In this document: positions 498 through 9,565 of the stretch, piece after piece
Layout: the number at the start of each line of letters is the position of its first letter
Position numbering within the stretch: the first letter of the stretch is position 1
Assembly: GCA_035281265.1 (NCBI GenBank)
Contig: DATEEF010000125.1
Span: forward strand, 1-62,373
DNA: 62,373 nt
Reading direction: 5' to 3'
Origin: Steroidobacteraceae bacterium
GTDB lineage: Bacteria > Pseudomonadota > Gammaproteobacteria > Steroidobacterales > Steroidobacteraceae
The notes under the pieces: model-generated
The model's database searches: none
What the model saw: only the letters and a program-made list of their open reading frames with translations
Told to the model about the DNA's origin: nothing
Program-made: the position numbers and the translations under genes

Positions 498-1655
498 ATG
501 ACGCGGACCGGATTCGTGCTGGCCAACCTCGGGCGCAGGAAGATGCGCACGGTGCTCACGCTGCTGTCGATTGTCATGGCGTTCCTGCTTTTCGGGCTGC
601 TCCAGGCCGTCAACGTGCTGTTCGCGGCCGGGGCCGACTTCGTCGGCGCGACGCGCCTCGTGACCCAGGCCAGGGTCTCGTTCACGCAATCGCTGCCCAT
701 GCGCCTCCTGCCGCAGATCGAGTCGGTGCCCGGCGTCGAAGACGTGATGTGGAGCCAGTGGTTCGGCGGCGTCTGGCAGGAGAACACGCAGCTCATCATC
801 CAGGCAGCGGATCCGGCGCGGCTGCACGCGGTCTACCCCGAGTTCGTGATGCCAGACGCCGAATGGCAGGCCTTCGAGAACACGCGCACCGGCATGATCG
901 CGGGCCGCAACCTGGCGAACCAGTACGGCTGGAAGGTCGGGCAGAAGGTGCCCATCGGATCGAACATCTTCCCGCAGAAGGACGGCAGCAAGGCCTGGGT
1001 CTTCGACCTCGTCGGCATCTACGACGGCAAGGACGAGGAATGGCAGCGCAGCACGAGCGGCGGCTGGATCAACTTCGCCTACTTCGACGAGGCGAACCAG
1101 TTCGCGCGCGGCCTCGCCGGCGTCTACATCGTCCGGCTGGCGGACCCCGACCGCGCGTCCGAGGTCGCCGCGACGATCGACCGGATGTTCGAGAACTCGC
1201 CCGACGAGACGAAGACCCAGACCGAGAAGGACTTCAACATCGGGTTCTTCAAGCAGATCGGCGACATCGGCCTCATCGTCCGCTGGATCCTGTTCGCGGT
1301 GTTTTTCACGCTGCTGCTGGTCGTCGGCAACACGATCGCCCAGAGCGTGCGCGAGCGCATCCCGGAGCTCGCGATCCTGAAGACGCTCGGATTCACCGAT
1401 GGCGCGGTGCTGGGGTTCGTGCTGGCGGAAGCCGCGGCGCTCTGCGTCATCGGCGGCCTTTTCGGGCTTGCGATCGCGACGCCGCTGGGGGTCGCCATCA
1501 CGAACGCGACGGGCGGCAACCTGCCGGTGGCCGTGGACGGCACGGTCTGGCTGACGGGCGCGATCACCATCGTCGTTCTCAGCCTCGCCGTCGGCCTGCT
1601 GCCTGCACTGCGGGCCGCGCGGCTGACGATCGTGGATGCGCTGGCGGGGCGTTGA
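498..1655 (+). CDS. ABC transporter permease, FtsX/MacB-like
   Basis: 385 aa. N-terminal TM ([19 protein letters not shown]), large periplasmic loop, C-terminal FtsX-type TM bundle ([22 protein letters not shown]). Starts 7 nt after the ATPase stop. Confidence 0.8.
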
Positions 1656-3731: not shown

Positions 3732-5147
3732 ATGGATTATCGGCGAGCATTGAACACCACCCGGGCGGCCTACAAGGATTCGATCATCCCACGCCTGTCC
3801 GAGTACATCCGCATCCCGAACAAGTCGCCGCTCTTCGACGCCGAATGGGAATCCCACGGCCACATGCTGCGCGCGGCCGAGTTGATGGCCGCCTGGTGCC
3901 GCGAGCAGCGCATCGCGGGACTCGAGGTCGATGTCATCCAGGAGCCCGGCCGCACGCCGCTGCTTTTCTGCGAGATCCCGGGCGATGGTGCCGACACCGT
4001 GCTGCTGTACGGCCACATGGACAAGCAGCCGGAGTTCACCGGCTGGTCGCCGGGACTTTCTCCCTGGGAGCCGGTCCTGCGTGACGGGAAGCTATACGGT
4101 CGCGGCGGGGCGGACGACGGCTACGCCGTGTTCTCGTCGCTGACGGCGATCCGCCTGCTTCAGGAGCAGGAGATTCCGCACGCACGCTGCGTCGTCCTGA
4201 TCGAAGCCTGCGAGGAAAGCGGCAGCTACGACCTGCCGCACTACGTCGAGAAGTTCGCGTCGCGCATCGGCTCTCCCACCCTCGTCGTCTGCCTCGACGC
4301 CGAGTGCGGCAACTACGACCAGCTCTGGTGCACGACGTCGCTGCGCGGCAACCTTGTCGGCGACCTCGTGATCGAGGGACTGACCGAAGGCGTGCATTCC
4401 GGCGCCGGCACGGGCATCGCGCCCTCCGCCTTTCGCGTCGCGCGCACGCTCCTCGCGCGCATCGAGAGCGACGTCACGGGCGACATCCTCGTGGACGAGC
4501 TGCACGTGCCGGTCCCGCCCGCGCGCGTCGACCAGGCGCGCGCCGCCGCGGGCGTCCTGGGCGACCAGATCGCCGGCAAGCTGCCCTTCGTTCCCGGCGC
4601 ACGTGCGCTTTCGGATGCGCCGGTGGAGCTGGTGCTCAACAACACCTGGCGCCCCACGCTCGCGGTGACGGGAGCCGCAGGCCTGCCGGCCATGGCGGAT
4701 GCAGGCAATGTCCTGCTGCCGCGCGTCGAGCTCAAGTTGTCGTTCCGGCTGCCGCCCTCCGCCGACGCCGAAGTCGCCGCCGCGGCGGTGAAGAAACGGC
4801 TCGAGGCCGACCCCCCCTATGGCATGCGCGTCCGCTTCGACGTCGGATCGTCGCTGCCGGGCTGGGATGCGCCGCCGGTCGCGGAATGGCTCGAGGCCTC
4901 CATGCACTCGGCATCCCGCGCGACGTTCGGCCGGGACGCGATGTACCTCGGCACCGGCGGCAGCATTCCCTTCATCGGGATGCTCGGCGAGCGCTACCCG
5001 GGGACGCAGTTCCTCGTCACCGGCGTGCTCGGCCCGCATGCGAACGCGCACGGCCCGAACGAGTTCCTGCACATCGACTGTGCCGAGAAGCTGACGGTGT
5101 GTGTCGCGCAGGTGATCGCCGATCACCGCGCGCGTCCGCGCGGCTAG
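3732..5147 (+). CDS. M20 family metallopeptidase (dipeptidase/ArgE-DapE-CPG2 superfamily)
   Basis: 471 aa. Motifs LLYGHMDKQP, GRGGADDGYA, IEACEESGS. ATG follows an AT-rich spacer. Confidence 0.8.
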   Translation: MDYRRALNTTRAAYKDSIIPRLSEYIRIPNKSPLFDAEWESHGHMLRAAELMAAWCREQRIAGLEVDVIQEPGRTPLLFCEIPGDGADTVLLYGHMDKQPEFTGWSPGLSPWEPVLRDGKLYGRGGADDGYAVFSSLTAIRLLQEQEIPHARCVVLIEACEESGSYDLPHYVEKFASRIGSPTLVVCLDAECGNYDQLWCTTSLRGNLVGDLVIEGLTEGVHSGAGTGIAPSAFRVARTLLARIESDVTGDILVDELHVPVPPARVDQARAAAGVLGDQIAGKLPFVPGARALSDAPVELVLNNTWRPTLAVTGAAGLPAMADAGNVLLPRVELKLSFRLPPSADAEVAAAAVKKRLEADPPYGMRVRFDVGSSLPGWDAPPVAEWLEASMHSASRATFGRDAMYLGTGGSIPFIGMLGERYPGTQFLVTGVLGPHANAHGPNEFLHIDCAEKLTVCVAQVIADHRARPRG

Positions 5148-5731
5148 CCGCGGCCGAGCGGACTCGGTTCGGCCTGGGCCGCGAGCTGGTCCCAGGCGGC
5201 GCGGTAGCGCTCCGCCGGATGCGTGCTGCCGGGCACCGCGGGCGGATACTCCCCCTCGAGGAGGTCGAGCCGCAGTACGCGCGGGGGCCGCCCCTTGGGA
5301 AACTTGGACCGGCTGGTGAATACGATCCTGCCGTCGACGGGGGCCTCGCCCGCCAGCAGCTTCACGGCGGCAATGCGGTCGTAGAGCGCCTCGAGCGGAT
5401 TCAGGAAGGTGGAACGCTCGCTGCCGTTCATGACGGCCCACTCGCGCATGTGCTCGCCGCCGAACACGACGCCCTCCACGTCCCGGTAGTCCACCACGAG
5501 CAGGCCGCGCGCGGTGAGCAGCAGGAAGTCGATGTGGAGCTGCCCGCCACTCCCGTCTGGAATGACGACATCCCGCAGCACGGCTGCCGACACGGCCTCA
5601 AACGACCTGACTGTCCGCTTGCGCGCGCGGAACCGTCCCCAGCGACGGTATGCCCAGGCGAAGGCGACCGCGAGCAGCGCGATCAGCATGACGGCGACAG
5701 TCACCTGCACGATGATGTCGTTGACGTTCAC
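5144..5731 (-). CDS. NERD domain-containing membrane-anchored protein
   Basis: The plausible part of ORF 5144..6259 starts at in-frame GTG 5731 (VNVNDIIVQVTVAVMLIALLAVAFAWAY is a TM helix). NERD-like core QLHIDFLLLTARGLLVVDYRDVEGVVFGG..W. The start codon is uncertain. Confidence 0.65.
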   Translation of the reverse strand: MNVNDIIVQVTVAVMLIALLAVAFAWAYRRWGRFRARKRTVRSFEAVSAAVLRDVVIPDGSGGQLHIDFLLLTARGLLVVDYRDVEGVVFGGEHMREWAVMNGSERSTFLNPLEALYDRIAAVKLLAGEAPVDGRIVFTSRSKFPKGRPPRVLRLDLLEGEYPPAVPGSTHPAERYRAAWDQLAAQAEPSPLGRG

Positions 5732-5874
5732 GTGCCCCGCCTCGCGTGCCAGGCGCGCAGCAGCCTGGTCCCGCCCGGAAGCCGCAAAAGGGCGAGCAGG
5801 CAGCGCACGGCGAGCCGCTCGCCGGCACCGAGCGCGAAGGGACGGTGAAGCTCCGCGAAGAGCGCTGGGCGCAT
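5728..5874 (-). CDS. hypothetical 48-aa ORF translationally coupled to the NERD gene (tentative)
   Basis: The TGA stop overlaps the NERD GTG start (GTGA). Hand-counted G+C by codon position over 5731-5820 is about 93% third, 55-60% second, 77-80% first, the genome's coding signature. No clear SD. Arg/Leu/Ala-rich sequence with no recognised family. Confidence 0.3.
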   Translation of the reverse strand: MRPALFAELHRPFALGAGERLAVRCLLALLRLPGGTRLLRAWHARRGT

Positions 5875-5901
5875 CGCGATGCGGTCGGTGCCCCGCGCGC
5901 C

Positions 5902-6066
5902 ATGCACGACGAGATCCGAGCCACCATCGGCACGGGCAAGTCGTTCCACGCGCACTGCGGACCCGGCGCTTTCGCGGACCCGGAGTCCGGTCGTTGCATC
6001 CCCTGGCATGCGCAGATGATAGTCGGCGCGGGCGGGCGTCACCACCGCAATCGGCTTGCGGCATGA
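5902..6066 (+). CDS. hypothetical 54-aa His/Cys-containing peptide upstream of the N2227-type methyltransferase (tentative)
   Basis: MHDEIRATIGTGKSFHAHCGPGAFADPESGRCIPWHAQMIVGAGGRHHRNRLAA. The first ~30 codons are almost all G/C-ending. The stop (6064-6066) lies 7 nt before ATG 6074. No obvious SD and no recognised family. Confidence 0.35.
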   Translation: MHDEIRATIGTGKSFHAHCGPGAFADPESGRCIPWHAQMIVGAGGRHHRNRLAA

Positions 6067-6073
6067 TGCACGG

Positions 6074-7432
6074 ATGACCTTCGACGCCGCGGTCGCCGGA
6101 TTGCTCGCCTGCCCGTCCTGTGGTACGCGGCTCACCGGCGCGAGCTGCCTTCCGTGCCGCCTCGACTTCCCGTCGATCGGCGGGATTCCGTGGCTGATGC
6201 CGGAGCCTCGGCTCGCCCTGACCGAATGGCGCGGACGGCTGCATCACCTGCTCTCGCACTACGGCGGCGAAGCCGCGCGGCAGCGGGCTGCGCTCGAGGC
6301 TCCGCTGTCAGCGCTCGCCCGATCGCGCATCGAGCGCGTCGCAGCCGCGCTGGACGACCAGGCGGCACGGGTCCGCGAGCTGTTGCAACCGCTCGGACTG
6401 TCCGGCCGCCACGAGGCACCTGCCGTGCACGCTGCGCTCGGCACCGAGCTGCCGGTGAGCCAGGGCCTCACGACCTACTACCCCAACCTCCATCGCGACT
6501 GGAACTGGGGTGGCGAGGAGAATCGCGCGAGCCTCGAGGCCGTCGCCGGCGTCCTGCCCGGCGCCGCTTCGGCGGCACGCGTACTCGTCCTCGGAGCCGG
6601 TGCCTGCCGCCTCGGCTATGACCTGCACCAGCGCCTGCGGCCGCAGCTCACCGTAGCGCTCGACTTCAATCCCTTCTTCCTGCTCGCAGCGCGGCGCATC
6701 CTCGCGGGCCAAGCGCTCGAGCTGTACGAGTTCCCGATCGCGCCGCGCACGGCTGAAGACCACGCGATCTTGCGAACGCACCGGGTGCCAGAGCCGCCGG
6801 CCCCGGGGCTCGCGCTCGTCCTGGCCGATGCCACTGCCCCGCCCTTCCGGCCGGGCATGTTCGACCTGGTGCTGACGCCCTGGTTCATCGACGTCGCCGG
6901 CGAGCCGGTCGCGCGCGTGGCCAGGCGCATCAATGCGCTGCTTGCGGCGGGCGGGACCTGGGTCAACCACGGCTCCCTCGCTTTTCCTGACATCGACCCG
7001 GCGGATGCCTGGAGCCTCGAGGAGCTGCTGGATGCGCTGCCGGCTGCCGGCTTCGCGCGCACCGAGGCGCGCGAGTCGCGGCAGCCTTACCTTTCGTCTC
7101 CCGCGAGCCGGCACGCGCGGCTCGAGTCCGTCGTCACTTTCGCGGCGCGCAAGGATCGGGATCTGCCCGCGCCTGCCGCGGGCCGTGAGCTGCCGCCCTG
7201 GATCGAGCGCGCGGACCTGCCGGTGCCGTCCCTGCCGCAGTTCCGGGCGCAGTCCCTGTCGACGCGCGTCTATGCGTACCTGCTCGCGATGATCGACGGC
7301 GAGCGCAGCATCCGCGACATGGCGCGGCTCATGGAGCAGCAGAAGCTGATGCCGGCGGACGACGCCGTGCCGGCGATCCGCGGCTTCCTCGCGCGCGCCT
7401 TCCGGGATGCCGGCCGGCGGCCGCAGTTCTAG
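6074..7432 (+). CDS. SAM-dependent methyltransferase, N2227/carnosine-N-methyltransferase-like, with N-terminal zinc ribbon and C-terminal PqqD-like domain
   Basis: N-terminal CPSCGTRL..CLPCRLDF..GIPWL (Trm112-like ribbon). Core motifs VLVLGAGACRLGYDL, LDFNPFFLLAARRIL, FDLVLTPWFIDVAGEPVARVARRINALLAAGGTWVNHGSL, ESVVTFAARK match the N2227 fold motif by motif. C-terminal YAYLLAMIDGERSIRDMARLM..AVPAIRGFLARAF. A TTG at 6056 is an alternative start. Confidence 0.75.
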   Translation: MTFDAAVAGLLACPSCGTRLTGASCLPCRLDFPSIGGIPWLMPEPRLALTEWRGRLHHLLSHYGGEAARQRAALEAPLSALARSRIERVAAALDDQAARVRELLQPLGLSGRHEAPAVHAALGTELPVSQGLTTYYPNLHRDWNWGGEENRASLEAVAGVLPGAASAARVLVLGAGACRLGYDLHQRLRPQLTVALDFNPFFLLAARRILAGQALELYEFPIAPRTAEDHAILRTHRVPEPPAPGLALVLADATAPPFRPGMFDLVLTPWFIDVAGEPVARVARRINALLAAGGTWVNHGSLAFPDIDPADAWSLEELLDALPAAGFARTEARESRQPYLSSPASRHARLESVVTFAARKDRDLPAPAAGRELPPWIERADLPVPSLPQFRAQSLSTRVYAYLLAMIDGERSIRDMARLMEQQKLMPADDAVPAIRGFLARAFRDAGRRPQF

Positions 7433-7504
7433 TCGCGGCAACCGCCGCCCTTGTGGCGGCGCCGCGCCTGCGATTATCGTGACGCCGGCTGGCAAGGACA
7501 GGAA

Positions 7505-9565
7505 TTGACGACGACACCACGCCTCTTGCGCGCGGCCCTGTGGGTGGGTATCGCGATCCTGGGCGCTGCGGGATTCGGGGGCATCGCCCTGAACCGCGGC
7601 GAGAGCATCAACGCGCTCTGGTTCGTGGTTGCCGCCGTGTCGACCTATCTCATCGGCTACCGCTTCTACAGCGGATGGATCGCGGCGCGCGTGTGCCGGC
7701 TGGACGCGACGCGCGCGACCCCGGCGGAGCGCCTCGACAACGGGCGCGACTTCATGCCGACGCACCGGTCCATCGTGTTCGGCCACCATTTCGCCGCCAT
7801 CGCGGGTGCGGGCCCGCTGATCGGCCCGACGCTCGCGGCCCAGTTCGGCTACCTGCCCGGCACGCTGTGGCTGCTGGTCGGCGCCGTCCTCGCCGGGTGC
7901 GTGCAGGACATGCTGGTCCTGTTCTGCTCGACGCGCCGCGACGGGCGCAGCCTCGCCCACCTCGCGCGCGACGAGCTCGGGCGCTTCGGCGCCGCCGCGG
8001 CGATGCTCGGTACGCTTTTCATCATGATCATCCTGATGGCGGTGCTCGCGCTCGTCGTCGTCAAGGCCATGGCCCACAGCCCGTGGTCCACCGCGACCGT
8101 GTTCGCGACGATCCCGATCGCGATCCTGGTCGGGATCTACCTGCGATTCCTGCGCCCGGGCCGCGTGATGGAGGCGACGGCGATCGGCGTCGCGCTCCTC
8201 CTGCTCGCCGTCGCCGCGGGCGGCTGGGTCGACCAGCACCCGGCGCTGCGGGCCTGGTTCGACCTTGGCGAGCGCGCGCTCGCCGTGTTCGTGATCGCGT
8301 ACGGGTTCGTCGCCGCGGTGCTGCCGGTCTGGCTGCTGCTCGCGCCGCGCGACTACCTGTCCACCTTCGTGAAGCTCGGCGTGGTGTTCCTGCTGGCGTT
8401 CGCGATCGTGGTGCTGCAGCCCGAGATCCACATGCCGGCGATCACGCGATTCGTCGACGGCAGCGGCCCGATCTTCAGCGGCAAGCTGTTCCCCTTCCTC
8501 TTCATCACGCTCGCCTGCGGCGCGATCTCCGGCTTCCACGCGCTCGTGTCGTCGGGCACGACGCCCAAGCTGATCGCGCGCGAGACGGACGTGCGCATGG
8601 TCGGTTACGGGTCGATGGCGCTCGAGTCCTTCGTCGCGATCATGGCCCTCGTCGCCGCCTGCGTGCTCGACCCTGGGGTCTACTTCGCGATCAACACGGC
8701 GGCGGGCGTCGTGGGCGCGGATCCCGCGACGGCCACGGCGACGATCTCGTCCTGGGGATTCCCGGTGACGCCGGGCCAGATGCAGGAGCTCGCCTCCAGC
8801 ATGGGCGAGCAGTCGCTCTACGGGCGCACGGGCGGCGCGCCGTCGCTCGCGGTCGGCATGGCCCACATTTTCGGGTCCGCCTTCGGCGACGGGCTGTTCG
8901 CGGTCTGGTACCACTTCGCGATCATGTTCGAGGCCGTATTCATCCTGACCGTGCTGGATGCGGGGACGCGTGTCGGGCGATTCATCATGCAGGACGCGCT
9001 CGGCACGCTCTGGGAGCCGCTCGGCCGCACGTCCTGGAATCCCTCGGCCTGGGCCGCGAGCGTCCTCGTCTGCCTTGGCTGGGGTTACTTCCTCTACATC
9101 GGCGTGCTGGATCCCAACGGCGGCATCAACATCCTGTGGCCGTTGTTCGGGATGGCGAACCAGATGCTGGCGGCCATCGCGCTCGCGGTGGTGACGGCCG
9201 TGTTCGTGAAGTCGGGACGCCTGCGCTACGCCTGGGTCCCCGGCCTGCCGCTCGCCTGGCTCGTCATCGTCACGACGACAGCCGCCATCCAGAAGGTCGC
9301 GAGCGACGACCCGCGTATCGGCTTTTTCGCCGCCGCGCGCGACCTGGCGGCAAGGCTCGCCGCCGGGGCGCTGCCGCCCGAGCGCTTGGCGGTCGCACCC
9401 AAGCTCATCTTCAACCTGCATCTCGATGGCTGGCTGACGGTCGCCCTCCTCGCCATCGTCTGGATCATCGTTGTCGACATGGCCCGAGGATGCTGGCTGC
9501 ACCTGAGCGGACGGCGGGTGGCGCCGTCCACGGAGTCGCCTTACGTCGCGACGCAACTCGCATGA
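7505..9565 (+). CDS. cstA: carbon starvation protein A (peptide/pyruvate transporter family)
   Basis: CstA hallmarks LWFVVAAVSTYLIGYRFYS, FGHHFAAIAGAGPLIGP, many TM helices. TTG 7505 sits behind AAGGACAGGAA. The ORF-track start 7451 is an alternative. Confidence 0.9.
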   Translation: MTTTPRLLRAALWVGIAILGAAGFGGIALNRGESINALWFVVAAVSTYLIGYRFYSGWIAARVCRLDATRATPAERLDNGRDFMPTHRSIVFGHHFAAIAGAGPLIGPTLAAQFGYLPGTLWLLVGAVLAGCVQDMLVLFCSTRRDGRSLAHLARDELGRFGAAAAMLGTLFIMIILMAVLALVVVKAMAHSPWSTATVFATIPIAILVGIYLRFLRPGRVMEATAIGVALLLLAVAAGGWVDQHPALRAWFDLGERALAVFVIAYGFVAAVLPVWLLLAPRDYLSTFVKLGVVFLLAFAIVVLQPEIHMPAITRFVDGSGPIFSGKLFPFLFITLACGAISGFHALVSSGTTPKLIARETDVRMVGYGSMALESFVAIMALVAACVLDPGVYFAINTAAGVVGADPATATATISSWGFPVTPGQMQELASSMGEQSLYGRTGGAPSLAVGMAHIFGSAFGDGLFAVWYHFAIMFEAVFILTVLDAGTRVGRFIMQDALGTLWEPLGRTSWNPSAWAASVLVCLGWGYFLYIGVLDPNGGINILWPLFGMANQMLAAIALAVVTAVFVKSGRLRYAWVPGLPLAWLVIVTTTAAIQKVASDDPRIGFFAAARDLAARLAAGALPPERLAVAPKLIFNLHLDGWLTVALLAIVWIIVVDMARGCWLHLSGRRVAPSTESPYVATQLA

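Follow-up and report, generated by a model that had tools for sequence, protein, structure and literature searches.

The locus examined here raises the question of whether a short, histidine-rich open reading frame (ORF) lying directly ahead of a methyltransferase gene is the substrate of that enzyme. A first-pass annotation had proposed such a substrate and enzyme pair somewhere in the window, by which we mean the whole stretch of 62,373 nucleotides analyzed. Our comparison of homologous loci leads to another explanation, which we consider probable: the short ORF is a shadow of an opposite-strand gene, two divergent units occupy the interval, and the enzyme is a three-part methyltransferase with predicted histidine chemistry. 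The genes and intervals concerned are the following.

3732..5147, plus strand: M20A dipeptidase of the CNDP/DUG1 type (Pfam Peptidase_M20; 3pfe, 1.7e-173)
5144..5731, minus strand: NERD-domain protein with an N-terminal membrane helix (Pfam NERD, E=1.8e-10)
5728..6009, minus strand: orphan gene, 93 aa from the ATG at 6009 (tblastn, alignment, gene calls, and pN/pS)
5902..6066, plus strand: 54-codon ORF, with 5902..6009 as the shadow part and 6010..6066 within the divergent control region
6010..6073, no strand: conserved 64-nt spacer between two divergent start codons (locus comparison)
6074..7432, plus strand: three-domain SAM-dependent methyltransferase, 452 aa (homologues, GC3 of 0.87, and predicted structure)
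7451..9565, plus strand: CstA carbon-starvation transporter, directly 3' of the methyltransferase gene (Pfam CstA, E=2.6e-246)

The 54-codon ORF is a shadow of the opposite strand

The description that had drawn attention to the ORF was accurate. Its 54 codons include 6 His and 2 Cys, its stop lies 7 nt upstream of the ATG at 6074, all the sequence motifs quoted in the annotation are present, and the hand count of base composition over 5881-6000 was reproduced, with a GC3 of 0.85 in the plus frame and 0.68 in the antisense frame. By itself, this composition favors the plus frame and counts against the shadow reading. The plus-frame signal arises because a Gly/Ala/Val/Asp/Arg-rich protein is encoded on the other strand and its first codon positions fall there.

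The belief that the plus frame looks translated was not borne out by its evolution. The pN/pS values of this frame range from 0.9 to 4.5, as expected without selection, and remain high against close relatives (2.67 for L050, 1.99 for L052, and 1.20 for L057), whereas the antisense gene is conserved. Across 5902..6045, comparison with four close relatives revealed the fewest differences at the plus third position (20/174), while the plus first position, equivalent to the third position of the minus frame, had 46/173. The product of 54 aa was recovered by tblastn (E<=0.001) in only 7/49 genome loci. The closest relative (L056, 94% identity) retains the whole ORF, and the syntenic ORF starting at the ATG is at most 17 codons long in 14 of the 25 loci that retain the TGA. 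No Shine-Dalgarno sequence precedes it, and neither Pfam nor NCBIfam matched its 54-aa product or the 106-aa product of the plus strand. Furthermore, the first 16 kb of the window (69% GC) contain 97 ORFs of at least 50 aa, so an ORF of 54 codons is no more than what chance would provide. Judged from these sequence comparisons, 5902..6066 is not a gene but the mirror image of the opposite-strand gene plus the 64-nt control region, and it is not translated into any conserved product.

The minus frame has the properties of a gene. It gave tblastn matches in 49/49 genome loci (E down to 4e-46), is kept beside every close homologue of the enzyme, and shows pN/pS values of 0.11-0.67 (0.29-0.67 where the two frames were set against each other), which denote purifying selection. 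The JGI and ENA pipelines call this gene at 93-111 aa and annotate no ORF on the plus strand. Its family comprises at least 348 database proteins, all named "hypothetical" and none with a Pfam match; the minus product itself matched nothing in Pfam or NCBIfam, and the family profile found nothing below E=0.5 among PDB sequences. Conservation is concentrated at the C-terminus (RPALF..LHRPFAL..DRLAVR.LLALLRLPGG.RLLR.WHARR), where the motif LH(R/Q/T)xF carries an invariant histidine, H107 of the orphan-family alignment A4, corresponding to H56 when counted from the ATG at 6009 and to H68 in the 105-aa product that would begin at the GTG at 6045. This GTG is disfavored as the start, as codons 1-12 of the longer product lack codon periodicity. 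The middle of the protein is freely deleted among relatives, with a 1-nt deletion there in L050, and the copy in the window lacks about 40 central residues present in most relatives and has an atypically low GC3 of 0.78, two traits that count against the shadow reading.

Two divergent transcription units

The orphan gene runs into the NERD gene, whose GTG start (5731..5729) overlaps the orphan TGA stop (5730..5728). This GTGA/ATGA overlap recurs in many loci, and 4-nt overlaps appear in independent gene calls. The arrangement indicates that the orphan gene is translationally coupled to the gene of the NERD membrane protein. A PADLOC search returned nothing for the NERD or the orphan protein and only a generic methyltransferase match (mad2, 2.2e-6), hence no evidence of a defense system. 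The sole Rfam match within 5000..8000 was a sub-threshold sRNA inside the NERD gene.

Between the orphan gene and the methyltransferase gene lies the 64-nt spacer, where each start codon is preceded by a -10-like hexamer, detected by comparing loci only; a consensus promoter and terminator scan of 5600..6300 found nothing. On the minus strand, TATCAT (6021..6016) stands 6 nt ahead of the orphan ATG, and in 44/51 loci a TATCAT/TATAGT/TATGAT hexamer keeps this exact distance of 6 nt from the ATG or GTG of the minus gene. On the plus strand, CATGAT (6062..6067) stands 6 nt ahead of the methyltransferase ATG, and CAT[GC]AT occurs 6 or 7 nt from that ATG in 48/51 loci. Codon periodicity is absent from the spacer (column entropy of 0.69/0.75/0.67). 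An in-frame N-terminal extension ("MRHDAR" or "RHDAR"), annotated in some homologues, is not coding, since the variation in hexamer-to-ATG spacing between 6 and 7 nt breaks the frame. From this pattern of conservation, the interval is best described as two divergent transcription units and not as an operon of peptide and enzyme.

A cis-fusion of three domains

The 452-aa protein belongs to a large family, with more than 1200 homologues and 452 clusters at 50% identity (E<1e-30), nearly all of them full length. Its AlphaFold2 model is of high confidence (pLDDT of 92.4 and pTM of 0.90). The three-part architecture read from the sequence at the outset withstood our searches: a Trm112-like zinc ribbon, a CARNMT1-type SAM-dependent core, and a three-helix PqqD-like domain are fused in cis within one protein, arranged as follows.

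6098..6202, plus strand: Trm112-like zinc ribbon (CPSC...CLPC), residues 9-43 (family profile against the PDB)
6461..7153, plus strand: CARNMT1-type class I methyltransferase core, residues about 130-360 (Pfam, PDB profile, and Foldseek)
7235..7408, plus strand: three-helix domain akin to the helical half of PqqD/RRE, residues 388-445 (profile, AlphaFold2, and fold)

The N-terminal ribbon is Trm112-like according to the family profile, which matches 2kpi (3.1e-7), 2js4 (4.8e-6), 2pk7 (1.9e-5), and 2hf1 (3.1e-5) over profile positions 4-55, and the window protein has all four cysteines (C13, C16, C25, and C28). What is shared with Trm112 and bacterial UPF0434 (YcaR; 2KPI, 2JS4, 2PK7, and 2HF1) is a CPxC...CxxC ribbon of about 40 residues, and JGI names homologues "YbaR (Trm112 family)". 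The Pfam Trm112p model gave no match to the window protein. Some family members lack ribbon cysteines, of which only C13 is at least 90% conserved. Trm112 is a separate activator subunit, in contrast to the ribbon described here, which is fused in cis to the methyltransferase.

A long helical hairpin (residues 45-103) leads into the core, for which the proposed N2227 assignment proved significant: Pfam CARME (PF07942, formerly N2227) matches residues 138-345 with 33.6 bits (E=3.4e-8) against a cut-off of 27, where the criterion is the curated gathering cut-off applied to the whole-protein score, and precomputed PF07942 matches exist for nearly all homologues. CARNMT1 (5yf0) was the top PDB match of the family profile by sequence (E=3.4e-17). 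The predicted structure likewise placed 5yf0_A first in Foldseek (E=4.9e-13, 350 aligned columns, and a TM of 0.73 normalized on the target), followed by OvsM, OvoA, and OvoM at about 1e-8 to 1e-7, with generic class I methyltransferases scoring nearly as high as these Ovo/Ovs enzymes. CARNMT1, OvsM, OvoM, and OvoA all methylate an imidazole nitrogen.

The likeness to CARNMT1 and yeast YNL092W (5YF0-5YF2 and 5X62) extends over the class I SAM core and the preceding helical region, and includes the RDW, GxGxG, and (F/W)xxD motifs and the aromatic residue, Asp, and Tyr that hold the imidazole. Among 70 diverse family members, G174, G176, W270, D273, and Y339 are invariant, and HMM alignment to 5yf0 sets W270, D273, and Y339 opposite CARNMT1 F313, D316, and Y386, the imidazole-anchoring residues whose mutants are the least active. 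Fold ranking and this retained triad point to a histidine-type N-methyltransferase core, as the annotation had suggested. Other pocket residues of CARNMT1 were not kept, as H347 corresponds to P305, Y396 to R349, and Y398 to E351, and carnosine itself is therefore unlikely to be the substrate. The two enzymes also differ in that they share only about 18% identity, in that the window enzyme is bacterial and CARNMT1 eukaryotic, and in that the former adds the N-terminal ribbon and the C-terminal PqqD-like three-helix domain. The methyltransferase domains of OvoM, OvsM, and OvoA (9BXH-9BXN and 8KHQ), the next-best folds (rmsd of 3.1-3.9 A), N-methylate the imidazole of histidine derivatives in ovothiol and ovoselenol biosynthesis. 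They are single-domain proteins of about 240 aa or part of OvoA, without ribbon or PqqD-like domain, and no ovothiol or ovoselenol genes were found near the window enzyme.

The C-terminal segment had been read as resembling a PqqD-type peptide-recognition domain (RRE). Its kinship to PqqD finds support at the family level: the domain profile has PqqD as its top PDB match (5sxy at 3.3e-4, 5vrd at 1.6e-3, and 3g2b at 6.8e-3, in the helical part only), Pfam PqqD (PF05402) matches 42/54 family members at E<=10 with a best E of 3.4e-7, and the motif IDGxRS...A is shared. It did not extend to the window protein itself, which has no Pfam PqqD match, nor to the beta-sheet wing. In the AlphaFold2 model, helices span residues 388-406, 413-422, and 428-445 (pLDDT of about 93), and no strands follow residue 360, so the beta wing of an RRE appears to be absent. 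A fold search with this modeled domain ranked PqqD 3g2b best (probability of 0.82 but E=1.5) and lasso B1 6jx3 second (rmsd of 1.4 A over 45 columns). The likeness to PqqD and RREs (3G2B and 5SXY; lasso B1 6JX3 and TbiB1 5V1U) thus consists of the three-helix bundle and the DGxx(S/T)...IA motif. The element that defines an RRE is the N-terminal three-stranded sheet, whose beta-3 strand pairs with the leader peptide, and the predicted window domain lacks it. On the basis of the model, the C-terminal domain falls outside the canonical RREs. It also differs in being fused after a methyltransferase, with no precursor peptide or other RiPP genes alongside: the sole candidate precursor nearby, 5902..6066, is neither conserved nor under selection, and no tailoring, protease, or export genes co-conserved as in a RiPP cluster were found.

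Overall, sequence comparison supports the view that the enzyme is genuinely related to CARNMT1, the histidine methyltransferase of animals, and that this bacterial protein carries two extra docking-type domains. Our literature searches found no described bacterial system with this fusion of ribbon, CARNMT1-type core, and PqqD-like domain, in agreement with the annotation.

Genomic context across the family

The orphan gene adjoins the methyltransferase gene in 49/49 genome loci and in 29/29 metagenome loci with at least 54% enzyme identity and upstream sequence present, and this adjacency holds where NERD, M20, or CstA is missing or moved (L075, L076, L078, L081, and L083-L085). The M20 dipeptidase gene, whose product also matches CNDP2 (2zof, 1.4e-17) and CNDP1 (3dlj, 2.4e-16) in PDB profiles, is found in 40/49 loci and cstA in 30/49. 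None of M20, NERD, orphan, or CstA is conserved beside homologues of 56% identity or less, and the orphan-family HMM found no member in distant loci below about 54% enzyme identity. Distant homologues are not preceded by a small ORF; in L053, for example, the end of lspA is 6 nt from the start of the gene. In about 30/55 distant loci, the methyltransferase gene is the last of a conserved same-strand cluster with four exported proteins, one of which bears a twin-arginine-type signal. HMMs of these four proteins matched nothing in the whole 62-kb window, and in profile-profile comparison they are unrelated to the orphan family (probability of 0.1).

Predicted function and alternative explanations

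N-methylation of a histidine imidazole is the most likely function, as predicted from sequence and modeled fold. SAM would supply the methyl group for an imidazole nitrogen of histidine, with D273 fixing the tautomer and W270 and Y339 holding the ring, like D316, F313, and Y386 of CARNMT1. The ribbon would act in cis to stabilize the methyltransferase fold, a task that Trm112 performs in trans for partner methyltransferases, and the C-terminal helical domain would serve to dock a peptide or protein substrate or to close over it as a lid. By analogy with these systems, we give the joint scheme (methylation chemistry, residue roles, stabilizing ribbon, and docking domain) an even chance of being right.

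The substrate is not the product of the 54-codon ORF. That a His/Cys-rich precursor peptide encoded by 5902..6066 is recognized through an RRE and histidine-methylated by the adjacent enzyme was an attractive idea given the stop 7 nt before the enzyme ATG, the GC3 of the plus frame, the intact ORF in L056, and an enzyme with both a CARNMT1-like core and a PqqD-like C-terminus. However, conservation of the ORF is limited to very close relatives, its pN/pS is never below 0.9 even there while the antisense frame is a conserved gene, its third codon position is the least variable, and it lacks a Shine-Dalgarno sequence; a tblastn search of the 49 loci found no conserved small ORF beside homologues, distant ones have none upstream, and the leader-pairing beta-3 strand is absent from the model. 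The precursor model is largely refuted, and we regard it as extremely improbable. The orphan protein of 5728..6009 could instead be the partner or substrate of the enzyme in this clade, docked by the PqqD-like domain, which would account for the unbroken adjacency of the two genes, their common conserved control region, and the invariant H107. Against it, genes within a single bacterial family may stay adjacent through inheritance of the gene order, the operon partner of the orphan gene is the NERD gene and not that of the enzyme, the orphan family is absent beside more distant enzyme homologues, and the middle of the orphan protein is freely deleted, with a 1-nt deletion in L050, all of which make this reading distinctly unlikely.

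Methylation of a small molecule that contains histidine (for instance, a histidine derivative or a dipeptide resembling carnosine), in peptide scavenging with M20A and CstA, draws on the fact that the closest folds act on small histidine compounds, that the neighboring M20 enzyme is related to CNDP2, CNDP1, and DUG1, and that cstA follows on the same strand, both genes recurring among the loci. We nevertheless hold it to be unlikely: no homologue of 56% identity or less has M20 or CstA beside it, other residues stand in place of the carnosine-contacting Y396, Y398, and H347, the PqqD-like domain and Trm112-like ribbon point to macromolecular partners, and CARNMT1 itself methylates proteins too (PMC10546975, PMC12275196). 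A role in modifying the translation apparatus (tRNA, rRNA, or a release factor), with the CARNMT1 likeness reduced to fold, would fit the ribbon and the presence of Bud23-Trm112 structures among the Foldseek matches (ranks 8, 10, and 20). It is very unlikely considering that CARNMT1 outranks the other matches by far in both sequence and fold, that the imidazole-anchoring triad is invariant, and that the family lacks a universal distribution and does not sit in a translational gene context.

Returning to histidine methylation of a macromolecule, a more specific proposal would make the enzyme a bacterial protein-histidine N-methyltransferase whose PqqD-derived domain docks a client before export, the client in Steroidobacteraceae being the orphan protein. 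In the distant loci, the twin-arginine-type protein of the four-protein cluster would fold in the cytoplasm and would thus be accessible to the enzyme. We put this full version forward tentatively and think it unlikely.

Implications

Where genomic GC is high, a protein rich in Gly/Ala/Arg has first codon positions that mimic the GC3 signal of an antisense frame; consequently, a small ORF in such genomes is not validated by composition alone.

Enzymes for protein histidine methylation have been assigned in eukaryotes only recently (SETD3, METTL9, and CARNMT1), and we know of no bacterial enzyme dedicated to this modification. The family described here is large, bacterial, and conserved over its full length, and it unites a CARNMT1-type core with a Trm112-like ribbon and a PqqD-derived module, in which a leader-peptide-binding fold would have been cut down and then reused. 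This three-part architecture makes the family a concrete candidate for a bacterial protein-histidine methyltransferase.

Coding status of the 54-codon ORF

The first-pass annotation had proposed that a 54-codon ORF on the plus strand (5902..6066) encodes the peptide substrate of the 452-aa enzyme downstream (6074..7432, plus strand). The ORF is present, with 6 His, 2 Cys and a TGA that precedes the ATG at 6074 by 7 nt, and the hand count over 5881-6000 was reproduced (G+C share of third codon positions, GC3, 0.85 in the plus frame vs 0.68 in the antisense frame). Its size is unremarkable here, since the first 16 kb of the window (69% G+C overall) hold 97 ORFs of 50 aa or more. On the opposite strand lie the following features.

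5728..6009, minus strand, orphan gene; conserved family, central part shortened in the window
5144..5731, minus strand, NERD-domain gene (Pfam E=1.8e-10; codon-position composition)
5728..5731, minus strand, GTGA overlap (NERD GTG 5731..5729, orphan TGA 5730..5728)

The plus and antisense candidate frames have their second codon position in common. Only one can be real, and the substitution pattern decisively settles the matter in favor of the minus frame. Compared with four close relatives (5902..6045), the window differs at 46/173 sites of minus position 3 (plus position 1), 28/174 of the common position 2 and 20/174 of plus position 3. Nine relatives give a minus-frame pN/pS of 0.29-0.67 over 5902..6009, as opposed to 0.9-4.5 for the plus frame; the corresponding ranges over 5731..5901 are 0.11-0.57 and 0.84-1.84. 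In the 49 genome loci encoding enzyme homologues that we compared, the 54-aa product gave tblastn matches at E<=0.001 in only 7, and the minus-frame product matched in all 49 (E down to 4e-46). Where the TGA before the enzyme start is kept, the syntenic plus-strand ORF from ATG spans at most 17 codons in 14 of 25 loci. The independent JGI and ENA pipelines call no plus-strand ORF in three close relatives; they do call the minus gene there (93-111 aa, 4-nt overlap with NERD).

Since the minus gene is real by homology, gene calls and substitutions, the plus frame owes its GC3 signal to first codon positions on the opposite strand, where a Gly/Ala/Val/Asp/Arg-rich protein is encoded. The 54-codon ORF is thus an antisense shadow of the minus-strand gene, its final third (6010..6066) overlying a 64-nt control region. 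With the plus product unconserved and no conserved small ORF for such a peptide next to the homologues, the proposed peptide-enzyme pair is rejected as unreal.

The orphan gene and the divergent spacer

The minus-strand products clearly belong to one family, with a strongly conserved C-terminus (RPALF..LHRPFAL..DRLAVR.LLALLRLPGG.RLLR.WHARR) and one invariant histidine. Their center is length-variable and freely deleted, the window and a few relatives being without about 40 residues present in most. The family profile recovered at least 348 database proteins, all "hypothetical" and none with a Pfam domain; the NCBI locus tag of one of them is next to that of an enzyme homologue. The overlap of orphan stop and NERD start is GTGA or ATGA among loci (ATGA in most relatives), implying that the two genes would be translationally coupled. 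In L050, a locus with 90% enzyme identity, a 1-nt deletion relative to the window (within about 608..943) places the halves of the orphan gene in different frames and reflects either a frameshift or a mistake in the assembly. Inside the NERD coding region (5456..5511, minus strand), Rfam gives a sub-threshold match to the Streptomyces sRNA Scr2736 (24.6 bits vs a cut-off of 43, E=0.33), probably due to chance.

Codon-position composition marks genes on the minus strand over 5144..5731 and on the plus strand from 6074. Codon periodicity is absent from the spacer between the divergent start codons (column entropy 0.69/0.75/0.67), which contains the elements listed here.

6010..6073, conserved 64-nt spacer between minus ATG 6009 and enzyme ATG 6074
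6021..6016, minus strand, TATCAT -10-like hexamer, 6 nt from the orphan ATG
6062..6067, plus strand, CATGAT -10-like hexamer, 6 nt from the enzyme ATG

In 44/51 loci, a TATCAT/TATAGT/TATGAT hexamer precedes the minus ATG/GTG by exactly 6 nt, in many of them embedded in the palindrome GACTATAGTC, and CAT[GC]AT precedes the enzyme ATG by 6 or 7 nt in 48/51. Both genes are devoid of a Shine-Dalgarno sequence. This arrangement suggests back-to-back core promoters yielding leaderless mRNAs for the orphan and enzyme genes. Because the hexamer-ATG spacing varies between 6 and 7 nt, the N-terminal "MRHDAR" extension given in the annotation of some enzyme homologues is non-coding.

Architecture of the enzyme

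Every motif quoted earlier from the 452-aa protein is present, and its N2227 assignment is significant (Pfam CARME, formerly N2227; 33.6 bits vs a threshold of 27). The enzyme has >1200 homologues. Among the representatives of a library clustered to 50% identity, 452 reach E<1e-30; nearly all are about 450 aa and alignable end to end, so the three-part architecture is old and stable.

A family profile built from 70 diverse members and searched against PDB sequences confirmed the CARNMT1-like core (5yf0, E=3.4e-17; 5x62, E=5.2e-12), and its first 55 positions match Trm112/UPF0434 zinc ribbons (2kpi, 3.1e-7; 2js4, 2pk7 and 2hf1), in line with the CPSC..CLPC ribbon read at the N-terminus. With the AlphaFold2 model based on the family alignment (pLDDT 92.4, pTM 0.90), Foldseek against PDB placed CARNMT1 at the top (E=4.9e-13, TM 0.73 on target), followed by OvsM, the OvoA methyltransferase domain and OvoM (about 1e-8 to 1e-7). 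All four catalyze imidazole N-methylation.

The proposed PqqD-type (RRE) C-terminus held in part: a PqqD relationship stands at the family level, whereas the window's own C-terminal sequence has no Pfam PqqD match. Pfam PqqD is matched by 42/54 family members (best E=3.4e-7), and the three best PDB matches of a C-terminal-domain profile are all PqqD (5sxy, 3.3e-4; 5vrd, 1.6e-3; 3g2b, 6.8e-3). The motif DGxx(S/T)...IA is common to both, but the profile match is restricted to the helical half of PqqD. Both predicted models have three helices (residues 388-406, 413-422 and 428-445) and are strand-free beyond the methyltransferase core. By Foldseek, PqqD 3g2b ranked first (prob 0.82, E=1.5) and, in fourth place, came a lasso-peptide B1 RRE (45 columns, rmsd 1.4 A), in a domain too small for either to be significant alone. 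The domain is probably PqqD-derived; with no beta-sheet wing predicted, it is not a canonical RRE.

CARNMT1 is a methyltransferase of carnosine and of C3H-zinc-finger histidines (PMC10546975, PMC12275196). Literature searches found no bacterial family with the ribbon-CARNMT1-PqqD-like architecture, consistent with the first reading.

Gene neighborhood

The window's nearest relatives are metagenome-assembled genomes of Steroidobacteraceae and Gammaproteobacteria. In the Steroidobacteraceae clade, the orphan-NERD pair and cstA flank the enzyme gene, and a dipeptidase gene is found further upstream.

3732..5147, plus strand, CNDP/DUG1-type M20A dipeptidase
7451..9565, plus strand, CstA transporter

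A CARNMT1-like enzyme flanked by these genes recalls carnosine metabolism in eukaryotes; this linkage is restricted to close relatives of the window.

The most faithful neighbor is the orphan gene, which adjoins the enzyme in 49/49 genome loci and in 29/29 metagenome loci whose enzyme identity reaches 54% and which include upstream sequence, even without NERD, M20 or CstA. It was not found beside more distant enzyme homologues. In about 30 of 55 such loci (35-54% identity), the enzyme gene comes last in a same-strand series of genes for four unannotated exported proteins, a cluster absent from the window and unrelated to the orphan family.

L053 6401..11213, L054 1..4711 and L086-L135 (homologous loci), four-protein exported cluster upstream of the methyltransferase

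CxxCH motifs occur in two of these proteins, together with weak matches to DUF1585 and Laminin_G_3; the N-terminus of one is twin-arginine-like, with TRRE(L/I). Gene order is kept, and the association with the enzyme survives rearrangement in L053 and L054.

Likely function

In the HMM alignment to 5yf0, CARNMT1 F313, D316 and Y386, which anchor the N-epsilon-2-H tautomer and whose mutants are the least active, align with W270, D273 and Y339, invariant across the enzyme family. In contrast, P305, R349 and E351 stand in place of H347, Y396 and Y398; consequently, the substrate is probably other than carnosine itself. Three less likely rivals take the target to be the orphan protein, which would then be the enzyme's client, a small histidine-containing dipeptide, or a component of the translation apparatus.

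The best reading is that the enzyme is a candidate SAM-dependent histidine-imidazole N-methyltransferase, in which the zinc ribbon would work in cis like Trm112 and the helical module at the C-terminus would serve to dock a macromolecular client.
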